Virus record (IMG/VR): IMGVR_UViG_3300045988_122195
Span: 50,227-114,226 of that record
Direction: 5' to 3' (one strand)
Origin: a virus
Length of the DNA stretch: 64,000 bases
The stretch's first letter is position 1. Every line of letters begins with the position of its first letter. A program made the translations under genes and the position numbers. The notes under the pieces were generated by a model, which was not told where the DNA came from, made no database searches, and saw only the letters and a program-made list of their open reading frames with translations. Positions 1,575 to 50,379 of the stretch are shown piece by piece.

Positions 1575-2855
1575 TTGAATCCGATATACGATGAATACAT
1601 TAAATTTTTAAAAGACACTTCTGGCGAAGAATTACCTTATTTAAAAGAAGGTTTCTTCTGGCTTGATAAACAGATTATAAAAGGTTTTGATAGTCAATTT
1701 GTAGAACATAAATTTTACAGAGTTAAAGTATCAGATAACCTAGAAAAAGTAGAAATTCTAAAATTAAAATCTTATGAAGATCCATCTGAAGTAGACCTAA
1801 TAGATTGGAGAACAATGATCAACATCAAAGAAAATCATTTGAGAGAAATTGAACATGAAGCTTTATGCCTAATATGTGAAAAGATCAAAGATTATGATGT
1901 ATATACTCCAATAATACCTGTTTCTATGGGTAAAGATTCTATGGTTACATGTCATTTAGTTCGACAACTATATCCAAACACAAAAGCAATATTTAACAAC
2001 ACATCACTTGATTGTACTGACACATATAAGATGGTTAAACGATTTCCGAATTGCGAAATTATGAATCCAGACAAAGGGTTCTATCAATATGTAAAATCTG
2101 ATTCTATGATTCCGTCAAGATTTTCAAGATTCTGTTGTAGGATTTTTAAAGTTGGAGTTATGGTTTCTCAACTTGATAATAAGCATCCGTATTTAATTTT
2201 TATGGGAATGAGAAATGAAGAATCAAATACAAGAAGCAATTATCAAGACGAATGGGTTAATACTTCAGAATGGGGAGACACATGTTGGCAAGGAATACTT
2301 CCTATTAGAAAGTGGACGGAATTGGATGTTTGGCTTTATATATTTTGGAGAAATATTGAAGTTAATCCAAAATATAAAAAAGGATATTCAAGAGTTGGAT
2401 GCCATTGTGCTTGCCCGTACTATGCGAAGTCAACATGGATTCTTGATAGATATTGGTATCCAAAAGCATATAAAAGATGGAGAAATATTCTAAGAGAAGA
2501 TTTTATTAACAATCAGAAATGGTTGATTATGAACTGTACACTCGAAGAGTATCTTACTCAAGCATGGAATGGTGGCGTGTTCAGAAGTGAGCCAACACAA
2601 GAAGTGATTGACGAATTTGTAAAGTATACAGGAATTGATAAACAGATTGCGCTGCAATATTTTAATAAGAAATGTTGTGAGTGCAATAAGAGAATAAAAC
2701 ATAAGGAAGTTCTTTCAATGAACTTAAAAATACATGGAAGACAAGTTAGTAAATTCTATTGTAAGAAATGTTTGATGAAAGAATTCGATTGGACACAAGA
2801 AGATTGGGACAAGCAGGTGGAGTCGTTTAAGGCTCAAGGTTGTGCGTTGTTCTAG
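1575..2855 (+). CDS. PAPS reductase-like / PP-loop ATP pyrophosphatase family protein with Cys-rich C-terminal extension
   Basis: 426 aa; PP-loop-like motif VSMGKDSMV (SGGxDS-type); C-terminal CHCACPYY and CCECNKR...CKKC cysteine clusters; TTG start in track. Confidence 0.7.
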   Translation: MNPIYDEYIKFLKDTSGEELPYLKEGFFWLDKQIIKGFDSQFVEHKFYRVKVSDNLEKVEILKLKSYEDPSEVDLIDWRTMINIKENHLREIEHEALCLICEKIKDYDVYTPIIPVSMGKDSMVTCHLVRQLYPNTKAIFNNTSLDCTDTYKMVKRFPNCEIMNPDKGFYQYVKSDSMIPSRFSRFCCRIFKVGVMVSQLDNKHPYLIFMGMRNEESNTRSNYQDEWVNTSEWGDTCWQGILPIRKWTELDVWLYIFWRNIEVNPKYKKGYSRVGCHCACPYYAKSTWILDRYWYPKAYKRWRNILREDFINNQKWLIMNCTLEEYLTQAWNGGVFRSEPTQEVIDEFVKYTGIDKQIALQYFNKKCCECNKRIKHKEVLSMNLKIHGRQVSKFYCKKCLMKEFDWTQEDWDKQVESFKAQGCALF

Positions 2856-3421: not shown

Positions 3422-4432
3422 TTGGTACAGAAAGCTAATACAATTGAGGAATTATTAAAAGGTTGTCCTGTAAATCAAACGATTTGTGATAATTTGATTC
3501 GTGCATGGGCAATTATCAACAATGATAAATATGAGAAAATCATTTGTTCAATTTCAGGCGGTTCAGACAGTGATGTGATGTTAGATATCGTTTGGAGATG
3601 TGACAAAGACAATAAAGTAGATTATGTATGGTTTGATACTGGATTAGAATATCGAGCCACAAAAGAGCATTTAAAATATCTTGAAGAAAAATATGATATT
3701 ACGTTTCATTCTTATAGGGCTATAAAACCTATTCCAACGTCCTGCAAGGAATATGGACAACCGTTTTTATCAAAACAAGTCAGTGAATTTATCCAAAGAT
3801 TACAAAAACATAATTTTCAATGGGAAGATGAAGATTTCAACACATTATATAAGAAATATCCAAAATGTAAGTCTGCCTTAGAGTGGTGGTGTTGTAACAA
3901 AGGTAATGACAGTTGCTTTAATATTACCAGGAACAAATGGTTAAAAGAATTTATGGTTGCTAATCCACCAACATTTAATATTTCAAACAAGTGTTGTAAA
4001 TATGCAAAAAAAGATGTTGCACATAGCATTGTAAAGTATGGAATAGACGGTAAATTATTTGATCTACAGATTATAGGTATTAGGAAAGCTGAAGGTGGTG
4101 CTAGATCAACAGCGTACAAATCATGCTTTGACGACAATAATGACATTGACAATTATAGACCTCTATTCTGGTACAAAGATTCAGATAAAGAAGATTATGA
4201 GAAAGTGTATGGAATTGTTCATAGTGATTGTTATTCGGAATATGGTTTAAAGCGCACTGGTTGCTGTGGTTGCCCTTATGGTAGAGATTTTGAGAATGAA
4301 TTAGATGTAATTAAGAAGTATGAACCTAAACTGTATAAAGCAGTAACAAATATTTTCAAGGATTCTTATGAATATACAAGAAAGTATGTGGAGTTTAGAA
4401 AAATGATGGATGAGAAGGAGAGAATAAGATAA
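3422..4432 (+). CDS. PAPS reductase-like / PP-loop ATPase family protein (paralog of 1575..2855)
   Basis: 336 aa; canonical PP-loop ISGGSDSDVMLDIV; C-terminal CCGCPYG cluster; TTG start preceded by gaggaaag RBS. Confidence 0.7.
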   Translation: MVQKANTIEELLKGCPVNQTICDNLIRAWAIINNDKYEKIICSISGGSDSDVMLDIVWRCDKDNKVDYVWFDTGLEYRATKEHLKYLEEKYDITFHSYRAIKPIPTSCKEYGQPFLSKQVSEFIQRLQKHNFQWEDEDFNTLYKKYPKCKSALEWWCCNKGNDSCFNITRNKWLKEFMVANPPTFNISNKCCKYAKKDVAHSIVKYGIDGKLFDLQIIGIRKAEGGARSTAYKSCFDDNNDIDNYRPLFWYKDSDKEDYEKVYGIVHSDCYSEYGLKRTGCCGCPYGRDFENELDVIKKYEPKLYKAVTNIFKDSYEYTRKYVEFRKMMDEKERIR

Positions 4433-5291: not shown

Positions 5292-5720
5292 TTGACTAAA
5301 AGGAGAAGAATAATGATAGAACTTAATGTAAATTTTGAAGAATTGGAACACATGGATTTAGAGGAAGCTAAGGAAATCGTAAGCCACTTCAACAATGAAG
5401 ATTGGTATGAAGAACTTGGAGCAACCGTTAATGGTGTTGAATATGGTTTAGATATTGTAGATGATGGTGATTGGGACGACCAAGGAAAATATCAGTACAA
5501 AGATGTAACAGGTATTTTGTGTAAAACCTCAGAAGATGGTTCAGTTACAAAATATGATATTGCAGTCACACAATATATCACAAGATGTGGTTCTTACTTC
5601 TCTGAATATAACTATGAGTACGTACCATTACAAGTAGATCAGTTAGTTCAGAAAGTAATTTCACAGCAGATTATTCCAGAGAGAACGGTGGTTACTTTTG
5701 CAGATAAGGAGAATAATTAA
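5292..5720 (+). CDS. hypothetical acidic protein
   Basis: 142-aa ORF; RBS aaaggagaagaataATG. Confidence 0.55.
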   Translation: MTKRRRIMIELNVNFEELEHMDLEEAKEIVSHFNNEDWYEELGATVNGVEYGLDIVDDGDWDDQGKYQYKDVTGILCKTSEDGSVTKYDIAVTQYITRCGSYFSEYNYEYVPLQVDQLVQKVISQQIIPERTVVTFADKENN

Positions 5721-6640: not shown

Positions 6641-7357
6641 GTGAAGAGACAGATTAGAAGATGTGTATTTGAGACTAATTCGTCAAGTATGCATTCTCTT
6701 TGTGTGATGAAAATAGATGAATATTATACACCAGAAGAAATCTCTAAGAATTTCTTTTTGTGGAACAACAAAGAAACAGGTGAAGAAAAGTGTGAATGGC
6801 ATATTTGGGATGGAGATTTAGAGTTTGGCAGAAGTCCTTTCAGAGTATTATGTAATTTCCATGATAAATGGTTATATGCTTGTGCCTCATTAGTAAGAGA
6901 ATATAATGATGAGACATATAAAGAATTAGAATCAATTGCATTAAAGCATGTTCCAGGACTTAAAAAGGTTGTTATTCCTATGGTTTCGGATTCATTCGCT
7001 GATAAAAACCATCCAGAGAATAAAGATAATGATTATGCACAGGAATATGGTAAAACAGAGGACGAGCTTAATGAATGGCTTGAACAGAAAGAAAAAGCAT
7101 GGGGTATTGATACACTTACATATTGGGAAAGTGAGAATGGATATTTTCATTTTGAAAAACCTTTTATGGGTTGTGTTGACAAAAATATCTTAGGCGGTTT
7201 TCTTGAGAAAGAGAATATATCATTAGAGGAATATTTAATCAATAAAAAGTATGTTGTTATTCAGGATGGTGATGAATATTGCGAGTTTGGCAACTTCAAA
7301 AGAAGTGGTTTGATCAATTTAGATGTGATTGAGCATGAATATCCAAAAGAATATTAA
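6641..7357 (+). CDS. conserved hypothetical protein, paralog A (N-terminal motif QIRRCVFETNSSSMH)
   Basis: 238 aa, GTG start; N-terminal 20 residues nearly identical to next ORF. Confidence 0.6.
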   Translation: MKRQIRRCVFETNSSSMHSLCVMKIDEYYTPEEISKNFFLWNNKETGEEKCEWHIWDGDLEFGRSPFRVLCNFHDKWLYACASLVREYNDETYKELESIALKHVPGLKKVVIPMVSDSFADKNHPENKDNDYAQEYGKTEDELNEWLEQKEKAWGIDTLTYWESENGYFHFEKPFMGCVDKNILGGFLEKENISLEEYLINKKYVVIQDGDEYCEFGNFKRSGLINLDVIEHEYPKEY

Positions 7358-7369
7358 GGAGTAAATATT

Positions 7370-7762
7370 ATGAAGAAACAGATTAGACGTGGAACTTTCG
7401 AAACAAATAGTAGCTCAATGCATGTAATCGTGATGTGTATGGAATCGGATTATGACAGATGGCAGGAAGGTAATTTATATCTTTTTACAGGTTCAGGTTG
7501 GTGCTATCCAGATAATAACAAACCTGAAAAGAATCATTTCTATACTAGAGAAGAAGCGATTGAATTTGAGAAGACAAACAAATATGAAAGAGAAGATGTT
7601 AATTGGACAGATGAAGAGGAAATAAATAAAATCCTTCGTGAAAACGAATTCTATGATTATGAATATTTTTGGAATGAGTATTGTGAAGATTATGAAGACT
7701 ATGAAGAAACATTGACAACCCCAAATGGAGATAAGGTTGTGGCATTTGGATATTATGGTTAG
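7370..7762 (+). CDS. conserved hypothetical protein, paralog B (N-terminal motif QIRRGTFETNSSSMH)
   Basis: 130 aa; shares MK(R/K)QIRR..FETNSSSMH with 6641..7357; acidic D/E/Y-rich C-terminus. Confidence 0.6.
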   Translation: MKKQIRRGTFETNSSSMHVIVMCMESDYDRWQEGNLYLFTGSGWCYPDNNKPEKNHFYTREEAIEFEKTNKYEREDVNWTDEEEINKILRENEFYDYEYFWNEYCEDYEDYEETLTTPNGDKVVAFGYYG

Positions 7763-7785
7763 ATAATTAGGAGAGGTAATGAAGA

Positions 7786-8682
7786 ATGGAATTATTAGGA
7801 AGATATAAGAATGGCAATTATGTTACGACTATTCTGAGTGATGGAACGAGAATAAGAGAGACAAATGATGATGAGTTTATTTCTGATCATGCTGAAAACA
7901 TGGATATAAAAATTACGAATGCTTGTTCAGCAGGTTGTCCGTTTTGCCACGAGGGTTCAATGAAAGATGGTAAACATGGAGACATTTTAAACGAAAAGTT
8001 TGTTGACACTTTGTATCCATTTCAGGAGGCAGCAATCGGTGGTGGAAACGTACTTGAACATCCTGATTTAATTCCATTCTTAGAAAAACTCAAAGAAAAG
8101 AAGGTTATTGCAAATATCACAGTTAATCAGGTTCACTTTGAAAAAGAGCAGAAATTGATCAGAAAACTTGTTGATGAAAAATTAATCTATGGACTTGGCG
8201 TATCTCTTGTAAAACCAACAGAAAAATTTATTAATCTTATAAATCAGTATCCTAATGCAGTTGTTCATGTAATCAATGGTGTATTAACTGCGTCTGATGC
8301 GAAGGTTATGGAGAATAACAATATAAAGATGCTTATTCTAGGATACAAACATCTTAGAAGAGGTGATGTTTATTTTAAACATGAGAAAGAAAGAATCGAA
8401 GCAAATCAGAAATGGCTGTATGGGAACTTAGCTGATATTACAAATAAATTCAAGGTTGTAAGTTTTGACAATCTTGCGATTGGGCAGCTTAATGTAAAAA
8501 GATTATTGTCTGAAGACGAATGGGAAGAGTTCTACCAAGGAGAAGACGGAAGTTCAACTTATTACATTGATATGGTAGAGCGTAAATTTGCCAAAAGTTC
8601 AACTGCGCCATTTAATAAAAGGTATGATTTATTGGATTCTGTGGATGAGATGTTTAAAGTGATTCGAAACGAGAATAATTAA
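7786..8682 (+). CDS. radical SAM domain protein
   Basis: 298 aa; CxxxCxxC motif ITNACSAGCPFCHEG near N-terminus; RBS aggagaggtaatgaagaATG. Confidence 0.65.
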   Translation: MELLGRYKNGNYVTTILSDGTRIRETNDDEFISDHAENMDIKITNACSAGCPFCHEGSMKDGKHGDILNEKFVDTLYPFQEAAIGGGNVLEHPDLIPFLEKLKEKKVIANITVNQVHFEKEQKLIRKLVDEKLIYGLGVSLVKPTEKFINLINQYPNAVVHVINGVLTASDAKVMENNNIKMLILGYKHLRRGDVYFKHEKERIEANQKWLYGNLADITNKFKVVSFDNLAIGQLNVKRLLSEDEWEEFYQGEDGSSTYYIDMVERKFAKSSTAPFNKRYDLLDSVDEMFKVIRNENN

Positions 8683-8719
8683 ATGGAATCTATTTGATAC
8701 ACTAGGAAAAAATTAATTT

Positions 8720-9595
8720 ATGAAAATATTAAAAAAATGGAGTAAAACAATAGAATGTGACACATGTAAGTGCGAACTTGAATATGGAATTGAAGATTTA
8801 AAGTCTAAAACAAGATATACATATTCAACTGAATTGGATGAATCATATATTGAAAACACAGAAGAGTTTACTTATATAATTTGTCCGTATTGTCAAAATA
8901 AAATAATAATAAATAAAACAATTATTCCATATGAAAAAGGAAACAAAGAAGAATTTTATAATGAAAAGGAGAATAAAAAGATGATGAATAATTTATTGAA
9001 TGGAATGTTTGGGAAAGTTGGAAATGGAATGTGCAGACTATCAATGAATGGCAACATTGCAGTAAAAACATCTAGTGGATACAAAACATACAATTTAAAG
9101 ACCGGAAGACTCACAAATTGCGATAGCTTTGTATTTAATATTGGAGAGGAATTTTTCTTTGTGATTCCTACAAATAAAGTTTCAGAAGGAGACATTATCC
9201 TTGTAAATGGGAAACCAAAATGTGTTATTGAAGCAGAAAAGAATAAAATTACTGTGATAAATTACGAAGATTCCACAATTGACACAATTCTTCCTGAAAG
9301 ACATGTGTTTATGGGTAATACATATTTCTATGGAAAGATTGTTTCAATGTTTGGAAATGATGCAGTAAAAGGCAAAAAAGGAAAAAACAATATCTTTAAA
9401 TATATGATGCTTTCTCAGATGATGAATGGAAACGATAACAATGCAGTGGGTATGGCTAATTCAAACAACAATATGAGTGCAATGTTACCATTTATGATGA
9501 TGGGTGGAAATATGGGCGAAATGTTTGACGGTATGTTTGATTTTGATATGAATGACGGAGACGAAGTAGAGAATTCAGAAGAGGAGGATGCATAA
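8720..9595 (+). CDS. zinc-ribbon protein with Met/Asn/Gly-rich low-complexity region and acidic tail
   Basis: 291 aa; CDTCKC...CPYCQNK ribbon; MMLSQMMNGNDNN...MMMGGNMGEMFDGMFDFDMNDGDEVENSEEEDA. Confidence 0.55.
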   Translation: MKILKKWSKTIECDTCKCELEYGIEDLKSKTRYTYSTELDESYIENTEEFTYIICPYCQNKIIINKTIIPYEKGNKEEFYNEKENKKMMNNLLNGMFGKVGNGMCRLSMNGNIAVKTSSGYKTYNLKTGRLTNCDSFVFNIGEEFFFVIPTNKVSEGDIILVNGKPKCVIEAEKNKITVINYEDSTIDTILPERHVFMGNTYFYGKIVSMFGNDAVKGKKGKNNIFKYMMLSQMMNGNDNNAVGMANSNNNMSAMLPFMMMGGNMGEMFDGMFDFDMNDGDEVENSEEEDA

Positions 9596-10475
9596 TATGG
9601 GATGTGGATCATGGACAAGTGATAGTTTTAAGAGTTATTCAAAATCAGTAGGAAGGTCGGTTTCTAAGTCAGGAGCTATCAATTCTGATTATAGCAATCA
9701 GGAAATGTTTAAAGCAAGACATCTTGACTCGGCACTCGATCCTAAAAATGTTATTAGAGAGTGTTGCGATTCAGAAGAACATCCAAATACATTGCCAGTT
9801 ATTTTGGCTCTAGATGTAACTGGGAGCATGGGAGAAGCAGCTGTCGAAGTTGCTAAAAAGTTAAATGTAATTATGACAAAACTTTATAAAGACGTAAAAG
9901 ATGTAGAATTTATGATTATGGGAATCGGAGATTTGGCATATGATGCTTGTCCAATTCAGGTATCTCAATTTGAATCAGATATTCGTATTGCTGAACAGTT
10001 GGATAAAATTTACTTCGAATTTGGTGGAGGTGGAAATAGCTTTGAATCATATACAGCGGCATGGTATTTTGGTTCACGTCATACAAAGCTTGATTGTTTA
10101 AATCGTGGAAGAAAAGGGATTATCATTACTATTGGAGATGAACAACTTAACCCGTATCTTCCATTGAGAGGTATGAAAAGTGGCTTAATTGATGCAACTG
10201 GTGACAATCTTCAGGCAGGTGTAGAGACAAAAGATTTATACGATGAGGCTTCTAAAAAATTTAACATTTATCATTTAGATGTGAATCATTATCATAGATG
10301 GGACGAAGATGAAGTTGAAAAATCTTATAAGGAGTATCTTGATGATACTCATTTTAGAAAAGTAACTATAGACAATATTGCAAATGAGATTGTAGATATT
10401 ATCATCAATGAAGCAGAGAATAATACACCAGATACAGTTACAACACCTTCTAACTCAGAAGAAATAACTTGGTAG
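9588..10475 (+). CDS. von Willebrand factor A (VWA) domain protein
   Basis: 295 aa; MIDAS-like LALDVTGSMGEAA, downstream GGGNS and TIGDEQ; true start may be ATG 9597 after gaggagga RBS. Confidence 0.65.
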   Translation: MHNMGCGSWTSDSFKSYSKSVGRSVSKSGAINSDYSNQEMFKARHLDSALDPKNVIRECCDSEEHPNTLPVILALDVTGSMGEAAVEVAKKLNVIMTKLYKDVKDVEFMIMGIGDLAYDACPIQVSQFESDIRIAEQLDKIYFEFGGGGNSFESYTAAWYFGSRHTKLDCLNRGRKGIIITIGDEQLNPYLPLRGMKSGLIDATGDNLQAGVETKDLYDEASKKFNIYHLDVNHYHRWDEDEVEKSYKEYLDDTHFRKVTIDNIANEIVDIIINEAENNTPDTVTTPSNSEEITW

Positions 10476-10495: not shown

Positions 10496-11611
10496 ATGAA
10501 GGACATTAAGATTGTAATCGGTTCAAACTTTGGTGATGAAGGCAAAGGTCTTATGGCGGATTATTTCTCTCAAAAACCGAATAGTATTGTTGTGTGTTCT
10601 AATGGTGGAGCGCAAAGAGGACATACTGTAGTTACCTCAACTGGAATCAGACATGTCTTTCATCATTTTGGATCTGGAACTTTTAATGGGGCAGACACAT
10701 ATCTCTCAGAGGATTTTATCTGCAATCCGATTATTTTCAGACAAGAATATAATGAACTAAAACATTTGGGATATTATCCGAACATCTATATAAATCAAAA
10801 CTGTATGGTAACAACCCCATATGATATGATGGCTAATCAAATTATTGAAGAAAATCGTGGAAAGAATAAGCATGGAAGTTGTGGTCTTGGAATTTATGAG
10901 ACAATCAAAAGATATAAAGCCGGAGTAACTACTTTGTATGTCTCCGATTATATCCGAGATTATTACTTAAAGATTTTCAACAGAGAAGGAATTGTCTTAA
11001 CAAAGAAATGGGAAGATTTGTTCAATGATTCAGGAATTTACGATCATTATTTAGAAGATTGGGATTTTATGAACGAAGTAGCAACAACGATTTCTGACGA
11101 ATGTTTTCTCAATGAGTATGAGAATATAGTATTTGAAGCTGCACAAGGTCTTTTACTTGATCAAAATAATCTGAAATATTATCCACATCTTACACCTTCT
11201 AACACAGGAATAAAAAATCCAAAGAAAATAATTGAAAATGTGAAATGGGACGATGATATTAACATTGAGACATGTTATGTGTCAAGGACATATTTAACAA
11301 GACATGGAGCAGGACAATTTCCATCTGAATGTCGCAAGAATCGAATAAATAAGTCAATGTATGATAAGACAAATGTTCCGAATCCATTCCAGGACACATT
11401 AAGATACGGAACGCTTGATTTGAAAGATTTATATATTCGATGTGCTAAGGATGTGATGAATTTTGGAGACAAGAAATCAATTGCTATAACACACTGTAAT
11501 GAATACAAAATTGATGTTGAGGAATTAGAAGATATCTTTGAAGGATGGAATATTTATTATTCTAACGGAGAAACGCACGATGATATGAGGGAGGGCGCTA
11601 TATGGAATTGA
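10496..11611 (+). CDS. adenylosuccinate synthetase (PurA) family protein, C-terminally short; candidate PurZ-like
   Basis: 371 aa; GSNFGDEGKGLMADYF (PurA P-loop GDEGKGK), GGAQRGHT (PurA GGHNAGHT), FEAAQGLLLD (PurA FEGAQGTLLD), PSNT, HGAGQFPSE (PurA GAGPFPTE); lacks about 60 aa of PurA GTP-binding C-terminus. Confidence 0.75.
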   Translation: MKDIKIVIGSNFGDEGKGLMADYFSQKPNSIVVCSNGGAQRGHTVVTSTGIRHVFHHFGSGTFNGADTYLSEDFICNPIIFRQEYNELKHLGYYPNIYINQNCMVTTPYDMMANQIIEENRGKNKHGSCGLGIYETIKRYKAGVTTLYVSDYIRDYYLKIFNREGIVLTKKWEDLFNDSGIYDHYLEDWDFMNEVATTISDECFLNEYENIVFEAAQGLLLDQNNLKYYPHLTPSNTGIKNPKKIIENVKWDDDINIETCYVSRTYLTRHGAGQFPSECRKNRINKSMYDKTNVPNPFQDTLRYGTLDLKDLYIRCAKDVMNFGDKKSIAITHCNEYKIDVEELEDIFEGWNIYYSNGETHDDMREGAIWN

Positions 11612-13040: not shown

Positions 13041-13343
13041 ATGAGCAAGTCAGTATTAGTTATGGACACGCCAGAAACATGTTTGGACTACATGTTTTGT
13101 TTCGAATTAGATGAAGGAATTAACGCTTGTTGTTCTGTTATGTCTGATAAAAATGATAAAAGTCTATGCAGAGATATTCAGTGTGATGGCGGTTATTGTC
13201 AGAGTAAACCAAATTGGTGTCCATTGAAAGAAGTTCCTGAAGAAGAACATAATGATTATAAATATGATGAGTATTGTGACGGTTATGATGATGGTTGGAA
13301 TTCATTAAGAGATAGAATTCTAGGAGAGAATAAGAATGTATAG
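13041..13343 (+). CDS. Cys-rich hypothetical protein
   Basis: 100 aa; CLDYMFCF...CCSVMSDKNDKSLCRDIQCDGGYCQSKPNWCP. Confidence 0.5.
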   Translation: MSKSVLVMDTPETCLDYMFCFELDEGINACCSVMSDKNDKSLCRDIQCDGGYCQSKPNWCPLKEVPEEEHNDYKYDEYCDGYDDGWNSLRDRILGENKNV

Positions 13344-13941
13344 ATATATTGCGGATTTGCACATCGGTTGTACGAATTCATTTGACGCTCGTAAAATAGA
13401 ACATGATGAGATTCTTGTTAAAAATTGGAATTCAGTGGTTAAAAATAATGATATAACGTTTATTCTAGGCGATATTGGCAGATGTGGAAATAACAAAGAC
13501 AATGAGTATTTATGTTCAGTAATCTCAAGACTTAAAGGAAAGAAAATTTTAATAGTTGGAAATCATGACGAATACGGTTTGAAAGATCATAGGGTTAAAC
13601 AGTTATTCGATTCGGTATGTGATTATTTTGAACTTACTGATAATTACAATGGTATCAATCAAAAGCTTGTCCTATCGCATTATCCTATCTTTTCATGGAA
13701 TAGTTGTTACAAAGATACAGTTCTTCTCTATGGTCACACACATGGTAATTTCGATGATGACATCTATCAGGAATCTCTGGAAAAGCTCAGATATAAAGTA
13801 AGACAATTGAATATAGAGAATAAAGAAGTGAAGAAATTCAAGAATCTTCCTTATGCTTATAATGTTGGTGCAATGATGGATTGGATCAATTATTGTCCGA
13901 GAACATGGCAGGAGATTAAGGATATTTATATTTTGAGATAG
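13336..13941 (+). CDS. calcineurin-like metallophosphoesterase
   Basis: 201 aa; motifs ADLHIG (DxH), FILGDIGR (GD), VGNHDE (GNHD/E), GHTHGN (GHxH). Confidence 0.75.
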   Translation: MYRYIADLHIGCTNSFDARKIEHDEILVKNWNSVVKNNDITFILGDIGRCGNNKDNEYLCSVISRLKGKKILIVGNHDEYGLKDHRVKQLFDSVCDYFELTDNYNGINQKLVLSHYPIFSWNSCYKDTVLLYGHTHGNFDDDIYQESLEKLRYKVRQLNIENKEVKKFKNLPYAYNVGAMMDWINYCPRTWQEIKDIYILR

Positions 13942-50000: not shown

Positions 50001-50379
50001 AGAACTTTCTTTAAAAGAAAAAATTGACAATCAGCATGAGATTCTTGGAATTATAAATATTGTAGATCCTGAAACAAACAAACGAATGTATTACGTGTCT
50101 GGTTTGGAAGTGTTAAAAACTGTTACAAACATTACTCTTTATGAAATCTACAGTGGTAAAACACGCCAAGTGAAGATGTGGACGAATCAATATAATAAAG
50201 AGCCTTTTGATGAAACTGATGTTCTATACATTATTTCCCTTGAGAAAAAGAATAAAAAAGAACCTACCGGTGAAATAAATCCAGAAACAGGTAAAAAAAT
50301 CTATGCAGATGTGCCAGATAAGTTTGAATATTGGCTCAAGAAATTCATAGTAAAGGAAAGTTTAGAAGATGATAGATAG
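47092..50379 (+). CDS. dnaE: DNA polymerase III alpha subunit (DnaE-type) with N-terminal PHP domain
   Basis: 1095 aa, GTG start; PHP signature FENYHCHKDFSNPTIADS; length/architecture of Pol III alpha. Confidence 0.8.
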   Translation: MERNKLIKEIIPTLNFKFPYETKDYCENLYFENYHCHKDFSNPTIADSGESIENYANRCHELKAKCLFSGEHGNQGNHFHVYTVAEKEKLRYRHSTEAYWVKDRHEKDRTNCHIVLVAKNAEGRRDINYALSMANIDGYYYRPRIDLELLMNIPKDNVIVTSACIAGWWYDDASDVWLKIHEHFQDNFFFEVQTNNTDPQKKLNERILRLSEKNGIDIIAGLDSHYINDVGEVKRDQILKYKKVTYPEEQGWFMDYPDMLTGLERFANQNVLDEKLALRAFMNTNVFVNECEEIVLDRSFKIPSMYKDKTYKEKCKIYMNDLNKAYSKEKIKSKDRADGIRYEAKEVMNSGVVDYFLTSKKIVEDAINNEGGILTTTSRGSAASYITNKLIGLTTVDRFNSDIPIYPERFLTKERVDAGMMPDIDLNISDQEPFIKATKKLLGEYGCMPLMAVEKLKKKAAWQLYAGANDVEPAMATQISKYIDEYEDALKYAEEEEKEFINVEDYIPEKYIDLFRKSNDYQGITINLKVHACGNLIFDGDIRREVGLITAISKTTGKRTLCACVEGGVLDDFGYVKEDFLIVDSVSLIYKCFKAIEREVPSFEELREMIKDDKPTWDIYEKGITCCVNQCEKASTTNKVKKYKPKTLAELSAFIAAIRPGFASLLNRFLNRSEYTTGEEKIDELLNDTAHFMLYQESIMKVLSFLGMKMGDTYGVIKSISKKKLKGEKKEKLLIELKKDWENEFGNLDNFSNVWSVIEDSAHYAFNSPHAYSMAGDSAYIAWFKAHHTSTFYEVAINHYQQKNKKDKINALIEESIKFYGYKLGDYKFGNDNRTVTVDEKNKLIYPNLSSVKGFGEGVVNTLYELGLKEYSSFIDVLTALTSNSINKTIINKLIRINYFDNYGDVNTLLQITTYFDLINGIKQMSKEKAIKNNIPFECLKKYGHETEKQFNKIDSVGLLNELVSNNKYKELSLKEKIDNQHEILGIINIVDPETNKRMYYVSGLEVLKTVTNITLYEIYSGKTRQVKMWTNQYNKEPFDETDVLYIISLEKKNKKEPTGEINPETGKKIYADVPDKFEYWLKKFIVKESLEDDR

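Follow-up and report, generated by a model that had tools for sequence, protein, structure and literature searches.

The window analysed here, a 64,000-nucleotide stretch of the viral record IMGVR_UViG_3300045988_122195 (positions 50,227 to 114,226 of that record), carries three adjacent genes: ORF1 and ORF2, which encode proteins with a nearly identical N-terminal segment of about 20 residues (hereafter the tag), and ORF3, which encodes a divergent radical S-adenosylmethionine (rSAM) enzyme. The three almost certainly work as one functional unit and represent a widespread two-component module of tagged proteins and enzyme, which has not been described before. We tentatively favour a reading in which the rSAM enzyme may act on the N-terminal tail of the tagged proteins, which would then be its clients. 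The preliminary description of this DNA had suggested that the trio may form an uncharacterised modification or maturation unit, and comparative genomics lends this strong support through the co-occurrence of tag and enzyme, the lack of a third conserved gene and one natural fusion. The motif itself may serve as a site of modification or processing, or as a catalytic or ligand site.

ORF1 (6641..7357, + strand) starts with GTG and encodes a protein of 238 amino acids (aa) with an isoelectric point (pI) of 4.6, belonging to what we call the ORF1-like body class. ORF2 (7370..7762, +) encodes 130 aa of a small acidic class, and ORF3 (7786..8682, +) encodes the 298-aa enzyme that partners the tagged proteins. 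The tags are residues 1-20 of each protein, MKRQIRRCVFETNSSSMHSL in ORF1 (6641..6700, +) and MKKQIRRGTFETNSSSMHVI in ORF2 (7370..7429, +). The three genes belong to an extended run of + strand genes, with 12 nt between ORF1 and ORF2 and 23 nt between ORF2 and ORF3, and each has a good Shine-Dalgarno sequence, including a GAGGT ribosome-binding site 8 nt 5' of the ORF1 start and an AAGGAG that precedes the ORF2 start. A scan for promoters and terminators gave signals no higher than in the shuffled expectation.

Comparison of the N-termini of ORF1 (MKRQIRRCVFETNSSSMH) and ORF2 (MKKQIRRGTFETNSSSMH) showed that 15 of 18 positions are identical, with the common motif MK(R/K)QIRR..FETNSSSMH. BLASTP aligned residues 1-28 of the two proteins (16/28 identities, E = 4e-8) and found no other significant segment, in agreement with the near-identical N-termini followed by divergence that had been noticed in the preliminary description. 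The same description had called the two proteins paralogs, a term that holds for the first ~20 residues and not for the bodies, for which profile comparison with hhalign without the tag found no similarity between the ORF2-type and ORF1-type families (P = 0.17). ORF1 and ORF2 encode the shared residues with different codons (Ser tcg tca agt in ORF1 and agt agc tca in ORF2; Phe ttt/ttc, Glu gag/gaa, Thr act/aca); the tag is therefore under selection as a protein sequence and does not stem from a recent DNA duplication or gene conversion. An RNA-level signal in this region was rejected on the same ground. The motif occurs just twice in the six frames of the window.

In a set of 82 distinct N-termini, the tag begins with Met1 without exception, and R6, E11, N13, S14, S15, S16 and H18 are invariant together with M1. 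The consensus, M-K-x-x-[IV]-R-x-x-[VT]-F-E-T-N-S-S-S-x-H-[SA]-[LI], spans ~20 residues, and its first seven residues are basic. In distant members, found in cultured phages, the core of the motif is loosened to [ST]-N-S-S-S(-S), and the Glu is missing in the members from phages Arash, RM378, phiYS40 and D479. Several known motifs that resemble parts of the tag were considered and set aside. The bacterial N-glycosylation sequon is D/E-x-N-x-S/T, and E-T-N-S-S matches it by eye, but neither a signal peptide nor a glycosyltransferase is present and some tags are without the Glu. Fold searches gave no support for V-F-E-T-N-S-S-S as a methyltransferase motif I, a HAD motif I or a flavodoxin P-loop, and pyruvoyl or N-terminal nucleophile (Ntn)-type self-cleavage at N-S or S-S, though possible, would leave the rSAM enzyme unexplained.

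The enzyme was recognised from the cluster motif C47-S-A-G-C51-P-F-C54 (codons 7924..7947, +, read from the sequence), which confirmed the CxxxCxxC radical-SAM gene that had been placed after the pair of tagged genes. This [4Fe-4S]/SAM cluster motif is invariant in 13 ORF3 homologues down to 42% identity; ORF3 contains exactly three Cys, and no other Cys is conserved in the family alignment. ORF3 scores 27.6 bits against the Pfam family PF04055 (gathering score 29.5), 9 of the 13 homologues match this family at E<=0.01, and distant relatives of the enzyme in phages Arash, phiYS40 and RM378 score above the cut-off at 51, 47 and 38 bits, respectively. In PHROGs, ORF3 matches phrog_16999 at 4e-41. 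The family further conserves the elements GGG[ND], N-x-T-x-N-Q, G-x-G-x-S-L, LGYK..RRG and SFDNLA, as well as an N-terminal extension of about 40 residues (residues 1-40 of ORF3, 7786..7905, +, from the family alignment) with the invariant residues Y7, N9, G10, N11, D19, G20, T21, T26, D29, F31 and D40, which we regard as a candidate client-binding element. No Cys-rich auxiliary-cluster domain of the SPASM/twitch type was found in ORF3, and a RiPP recognition element (RRE, a PqqD-like winged helix-turn-helix; RiPP, ribosomally synthesised and post-translationally modified peptide) had no Pfam or NCBIfam match in the enzyme or its neighbours. Judged from its sequence, ORF3 is a divergent and compact member of the radical-SAM superfamily and is predicted to generate a 5'-deoxyadenosyl radical.

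Weak NCBIfam matches of ORF3 to NrdG2 (TIGR02495; 19.1 bits, cut-off 131) and MoaA (24 bits, cut-off 231) are the kind of result expected from an ordinary explanation, in which the tagged proteins would belong to a known housekeeping family and the rSAM protein would be a second ribonucleotide reductase (RNR) activase or a QueE in an unrelated context. The preliminary description had named this outcome as the one that would overturn its proposal. Because the best NCBIfam scores lie far below every cut-off, ORF3 is neither an RNR activase nor QueE; QueE gave no match for it in NCBIfam or Pfam, and the genes conserved around it are the tagged genes alone. The tagged proteins give this explanation no support either: ORF1 and ORF2 have no match in Pfam-A, NCBIfam or the anti-phage defence collection PADLOC-DB (the latter holding also for the rSAM), 30 diverse tagged proteins have none in Pfam, and a fold search with ORF1 found none in the PDB or BFVD. 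Sequence and profile searches of the PDB with ORF1, the rSAM profile and the profile of the core class of tagged proteins (see below) returned nothing meaningful, with no relative of known structure for the rSAM profile. In PHROGs, ORF1 and ORF2 match phrog_28997, a family of unknown function, weakly and in the tag only, and the motif strings were not found in any paper by literature search. The tagged family is thus new to curated libraries; with the gene context tightly conserved as well, we give the ordinary explanation next to no probability.

Linkage of tag and enzyme was assessed by several searches, each starting from a different element. With the ORF1 profile, 79 loci were retrieved from IMG/VR, phylogenetically clustered, and the rSAM gene was present in 76 of them, always downstream of the tagged genes, from which it is separated by 24 nt (median); of the three loci without it, two stop at a contig edge. 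This check of gene neighbourhoods in related phages had been proposed together with the modification unit, and it upheld it. With the tag alone, searched as the nine-residue pattern VFETNSSS[TVM], 76 loci were obtained from GTDB species representatives, and a homologue of the ORF3 enzyme (38-78% identity) was located within 7 kb in 62, downstream in 56 and upstream in 4, at a median gap of 16 nt, while 5 of the 14 loci without it stop at a contig edge. Starting from the rSAM alone, tagged ORFs (1-3) were found in all 79 IMG/VR loci selected, which are close relatives of one another and not independent. The number of tagged genes per rSAM locus ranges from 1 to 10. All-versus-all clustering of the ORFs of 86 loci revealed two conserved families, the tagged proteins and the rSAM, and no third conserved gene.

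The co-occurrence of tag and rSAM extends from 88% down to ~25-38% rSAM identity and includes phages, bacteria and archaea. In Lak megaphage B6, the rSAM (52% identity) precedes a tandem array of four genes whose products all begin with MK[IV]Q[IV]R.SVFETNSSSTHS. The GTDB isolates that carry the tag include the Lachnospiraceae Acetivibrio ethanolgignens, Eubacterium plexicaudatum ASF492 and strain MD308, the set also includes the complete genome of Breznakiella homolactica, and among the metagenome-assembled genomes with the tag are those of Bacteroidota, candidate-phyla-radiation bacteria and Methanobrevibacter. Some modules are located in cellular islands without capsid genes, one beside the tuf operon (locus L155) and one in the Breznakiella chromosome (L141). 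In both of these the rSAM is split into two ORFs (L141 7276..8297; L155 8684..9552) with the tagged gene or genes intact, and they may be decaying copies of the module that arose by frameshift or internal loss. The closest cellular gene order, an ORF1-like gene, more tagged genes, an ORF2-like gene and an rSAM of 68-70% identity, was observed in Lachnospiraceae (L083, L084 and L096), which suggests that the phage group of the window infects this family. The module of E. plexicaudatum (L084) is surrounded by CCA-adding-like, DHH-like and DNA-methylase genes. Another locus (L082; GCA_964261755.1, a 958 kb contig) was not used as evidence, as its assembly looks rearranged or chimeric: its ORF1 homologue (7971..8849) ends after ..YVVIQ and is followed by unrelated sequence, ORF2 and rSAM are lacking, and NrdD/NrdG fragments are nearby.

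A tblastn search of 50,697 phage records with the rSAM identified several cultured phages in addition to Lak phages. Microcystis phage Ma-LMM01 and the MaMV phages encode an rSAM, gp128, with 36% identity to ORF3, and a partner, gp130, of the core class that starts MLSIQVRQGVFETNSSSTHS. The two genes are two apart, with gp129 between them (L159 4631..4969), which matches Phage_ProQ_C_like (PF24203, 7e-15) and is not kept with the module elsewhere. Rhodothermus phage RM378 pairs the rSAM p108 with the tagged p106 (MKAFIRFGLSTNSSSSHS), Thermus phages phiYS40 and TMA pair the rSAM gene 161 with the tagged gene 162 (..LTSMTNSSSASM), and Vibrio phage D479 encodes a longer rSAM with a tagged partner (MKIRNGFVSNSSSSSF) 1.3 kb upstream. 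The pairing therefore persists at ~25% rSAM identity, in phages of aerobic and thermophilic hosts and not just of gut anaerobes. In Salmonella phage Arash, the two components are joined: gp146c, a single polypeptide of 476 aa annotated as a 'methyltransferase', consists of an N-terminal tagged domain (MYLTQIRYGFATNSSSSHS) and a C-terminal rSAM (PF04055, 51 bits). The N-terminal domain carries the motifs FGYGW, GYIDHES and GGNDN and is homologous to Ma-LMM01 gp130 (30.5% identity, E = 2e-5). Further fusions of tag and rSAM were found neither in IMG/VR relatives of Arash nor among ~240 loci.

These distant members bear on whether the tag could be a capsid-targeting or propeptide signal, cut by the prohead protease after V-F-E, with the neighbouring rSAM being incidental. 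The internal proteins ipI-III of phage T4 are encoded by tandem genes and share an N-terminus of ~10-20 residues ahead of unrelated bodies, and the V-F-E of the tag, present in most tagged members, presumably agrees with the hydrophobic-x-Glu rule for cleavage. Conservation of the tag runs at least 8 residues beyond this Glu, however, the Glu itself is missing in the Arash, RM378, phiYS40 and D479 proteins, and the cellular islands described above have the module without capsid genes. The rSAM linkage is also far too consistent for chance adjacency. The 116 proteins reported for virion preparations of Arash do not include Gp146, which is weak evidence in the same direction. We consider a capsid-targeting signal very improbable.

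Beyond the tag, the tagged proteins fall into at least 25 body classes without BLAST links between them, of which the ORF2-like, core, Cys-motif and ORF1-like classes are the four largest. The proteins range from 94 to 328 aa, and at loci with a single tagged gene any body class can be the one present. The ORF2-like class is small and acidic, has an invariant C-terminal hairpin, T.P.G..V..FG.YG, and shows no profile similarity to the core class once the tag is removed (hhalign, P = 0.13). The Cys-motif class (264-328 aa, C..RYF.EGCL.DC.CGFE) could bind a metal or an Fe-S cluster; the motif, as C(C).RYF.EGCL.DC.CGFE, was also observed over a wider range of tagged proteins, 172-328 aa (L133, L146, L147, L154, L158 and L120), and this class is frequently the sole client in Christensenellaceae and Eubacteriales genomes. 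Relatives of these proteins are numerous, with 800 clusters at 90% identity and 663 profile-derived representatives at 50% identity for ORF1, 923 clusters in metagenomes for ORF2, all unnamed, and at least 5,509 clusters at 90% identity for the core-class profile in a collection of 5.8 billion proteins, the best 120 matches of which include none with a name or a Pfam domain.

Some candidate functional motifs in the bodies were rejected. The FGxYG of the ORF2 C-terminus does not satisfy the PROSITE glycyl-radical pattern; by eye, its sequence V-V-A-F-G-Y-Y-G has no Arg and no small residue ahead of the Gly, and neither ORF1 nor ORF2 contains [STIV]-x-R-[IVT]-[CSA]-G-[YF]-x-[GACV] or matches the Pfam Gly_radical family. 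A splicease XYG motif or a mycofactocin-like C-terminal Tyr was also dismissed, as the enzyme is without SPASM and many clients are without the motif.

The core class (~174 aa), which is the largest and has the widest distribution and includes Ma-LMM01 gp130, RM378 p106 and the N-terminal domain of Arash gp146c, has the extra invariant motifs G-W, Y, D-H and N-D-N, and its invariant polar positions are R7, T13-N-S-S-S, H19, Y58, D106-H107 and N140-D-N142. This pattern supports the main alternative to a substrate role, in which the tagged proteins are accessory or catalytic subunits, with T-N-S-S-S-x-H, D-H and N-D-N making up a metal- or ligand-binding site. Domain and rSAM, free or fused in the manner of PqqD, would then act on a third-party nucleotide, DNA or RNA base or metabolite, with the small ORF2-type proteins as derivatives that have degenerated or taken on a regulatory role. 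The N-terminal fusion to the rSAM in Arash gp146c fits this alternative, as does a weak profile link, without the tag, between the ORF1-type family and the core class over the DH..NDN region (hhalign, P = 0.0024). So do the nucleic-acid and nucleotide enzyme genes found nearby, which in the window are PAPS-reductase-like and PurA-like and elsewhere encode an RNA ligase, a primase and a poly(A) polymerase or CCA-adding-like enzyme. Most body classes, however, are without DH and NDN while the tag stays invariant. In the ORF1 family, the DH motif no longer has its His (VDKN or VDEN instead), and the rSAM is present where the sole tagged gene is of the ORF2-type or Cys-motif class. One to ten copies per enzyme and an arms-race-like diversity would be unusual for a catalytic subunit, and in the predicted structures the tag is packed into neither body. 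A subunit role appears unlikely on balance, while retaining an appreciable chance.

Whatever their class, nearly all tagged bodies are very acidic. Among 190 of them (loci L001-L158), 96% have a pI below 5, with a median of 4.45, and the body of ORF2, pI 4.1, agrees with the very acidic, Tyr/Glu-rich tail that the preliminary description had noted in one of the pair. The variable positions of the tag are more similar between proteins of the same locus with different bodies (0.49) than between loci (0.38), a value that none of 1,000 permutations reached; this fits concerted evolution and is compatible with one shared partner per locus. A constant tag that evolves in concert within a locus, carried by hypervariable and uniformly acidic bodies, would also be expected if the tag were a docking peptide, by which target-binding bodies, possibly nucleic-acid mimics, plug onto the rSAM in an F-box-like logic so that its radical chemistry is directed at hypothetical host targets bound by these bodies. 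For such an adaptor, a fusion to the enzyme would be a natural arrangement, but docking would be redundant in the fused Arash protein, where the tag is kept. Small polar residues (E, T, N, S, S, S and H) occupy the invariant positions, which is atypical of a docking interface. We regard an adaptor role as improbable.

Structure predictions with AlphaFold2 (AF2) are part of what favours the tail as the substrate of the enzyme. Residues 1-14 have a predicted local distance difference test score (pLDDT) below 50 in the models of both ORF1 and ORF2, the ORF1 model reaching 87.7 overall, and a confident fold (pLDDT 87) begins after residue 16, with the first strand at residue 17-18. We favour the substrate model because the tail, thus unpacked in two independent models, is the sole element common to all partners and is fixed to the N-terminus, because many clients are encoded upstream of each enzyme, and because any body class suffices as sole partner.

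Under the substrate model, the basic half of the tag (K2, R6 and R7) would dock on the acidic invariant residues of the N-terminal extension of the rSAM, so that the E-T-N-S-S-S-x-H stretch enters the active site, where the 5'-deoxyadenosyl radical would abstract a hydrogen from one of its residues. This would leave a post-translational modification or a reactive group on the tail, required by every client whatever its body, and in Arash the same reaction would take place inside one polypeptide. A more specific form of this model, that a single-cluster rSAM installs a new modification or reactive group on the tail of a fast-diversifying acidic family of phages and mobile elements, is possible, although we hold it with less assurance than action on the tail as such. 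Because auxiliary clusters and further conserved Cys are absent, the enzyme cannot use the usual mechanisms of sactisynthases, anSME or YydG-type enzymes, and thioether formation, anSME-type formation of formylglycine and Cys-dependent epimerisation are disfavoured; possible single-cluster chemistries include radical generation, elimination or dehydration (at Ser) and adenosylation.

Several points weigh against the tail as substrate, a role that we infer. The Y, D-H and N-D-N of the core class, together with T-N-S-S-S-x-H, look like one polar active or ligand site, which an enzyme or accessory subunit fits equally well as a substrate. Fusion of a tagged domain to the rSAM, of which a single case was found, is what one classically sees for subunits or for enzymes of consecutive steps, whereas fusions of an enzyme to its substrate exist but are rarer. 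The RRE and SPASM domains usual in rSAM enzymes that modify proteins or peptides are absent from this one. The low pLDDT at the invariant N-terminus is weak evidence and may be artefactual, since columns without variation provide no covariation signal and the models were based on shallow alignments (26 and 56 sequences, closely related). The similarity of tags within a locus may, at least partly, be explained by shared ancestry.

The diversity of the clients, their variation in copy number, their acidity and the early or metabolic location of the module in large phages lead us to speculate that the clients are effectors of phage-host conflict. In the window, two closely spaced genes upstream of the module (1575..2855 and 3422..4432) encode proteins with the PP-loop domain of 3'-phosphoadenosine 5'-phosphosulfate (PAPS) reductase (PF01507, 2e-27 and 5e-11), and a similar PP-loop gene is located near the module of E. 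plexicaudatum (L084). Downstream, 10496..11611 encodes a short homologue of adenylosuccinate synthetase (371 aa, with a GDEGKG P-loop; Pfam Adenylsucc_synt 7e-38), which in many related phage contigs is co-conserved with a vWA-like protein (DVTGSMG, phrog_2971) and a Zn-ribbon protein with a Gly/Met/Asn-rich tail (9588..10475 and 8720..9595 in the window). This homologue could be a PurZ-type enzyme for 2-aminoadenine DNA; its best PDB matches are ordinary PurA (E = 1e-18). The two PAPS-reductase-domain genes and the PurA-like gene suggest a region for nucleotide or DNA modification. The 142-aa protein of 5292..5720 has no Pfam match itself at E<=0.01, and a 78%-identical relative (L082 8849..9262) has a precomputed match to PF26835 (Phage_T4_Y04K). 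A calcineurin-like metallophosphoesterase (PF00149, 4e-6) is encoded at 13336..13941.

Few radical-SAM enzymes act on proteins, and every one of them has brought new chemistry, such as glycyl radicals, formylglycine, thioethers and splicing. Here the partner of a compact and divergent rSAM can be recognised by a single 9-residue motif, in a module that ranges over Lak megaphages, phages of Lachnospiraceae, Bacteroidota and Methanobrevibacter from the human and animal gut, a cyanophage that controls blooms, phages of thermophiles and a Salmonella phage. If the tail is indeed modified, the module would be a new protein-maturation system of large phages in the gut, freshwater blooms, hot springs and enterobacteria, probably serving host conflict, and if the clients are effectors in such conflict, a role would be assigned to a sizeable block of functionally unassigned phage genes. 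Cultured and tractable systems exist in Ma-LMM01 gp128/gp130 and in Arash gp146c on Salmonella Typhimurium, which makes the hypothesis directly testable.

Among known systems, maturases with their precursors and activases with their clients would come closest in mode of action, yet the module departs from each of these families in their defining features. RiPP-type maturases (PqqE/PqqA/PqqD, SCIFF and sactipeptide systems) likewise have one rSAM beside one or more upstream genes that share a short conserved recognition segment and differ in the rest, with many substrates per enzyme and a recognition element that is sometimes fused to the enzyme. In contrast to their short peptides (RiPP precursors are usually below 100 aa, with a conserved leader and a variable, unstructured core), the clients here are longer, folded, acidic proteins of 94-328 aa. 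The shared segment is extreme N-terminal and near-invariant instead of a moderately conserved leader ahead of a variable core, and the enzyme has three Cys only, without RRE, SPASM or twitch domain and without an accompanying protease or exporter. Glycyl-radical activases (PflA with PflB/TdcE/GrcA; NrdG with NrdD) resemble ORF3 in being small single-cluster rSAM enzymes of ~250-300 aa with a CxxxCxxC-H context, to which the weak NrdG2 match corresponds, and in acting on several different folded clients at a defined loop. Their site is C-terminal, whereas the tag is N-terminal and has no invariant Gly, and the clients here are without RVxG[FY] or a Gly_radical domain. The T4 internal proteins are similarly encoded by tandem, fast-diversifying phage genes with only a short N-terminal sequence in common, but here an rSAM is the obligate partner, the conserved stretch continues beyond the presumed cleavage Glu, and non-phage and fused forms of the module exist. 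A possible precedent for Arash gp146c is the borosin OphMA, in which enzyme and target segment are part of one polypeptide, although OphMA is a SAM methyltransferase with a C-terminal core peptide. Finally, AtsB/anSME enzymes create a catalytic group in sulfatases from a Ser or Cys that is part of a short conserved motif close to the N-terminus; the tagged proteins do not have the sulfatase client motif C/S-x-P/A-x-R and alkaline-phosphatase-like fold, yet if the target were a Ser of S14-S16, this pair would be the nearest functional analogy to the tag and its rSAM.

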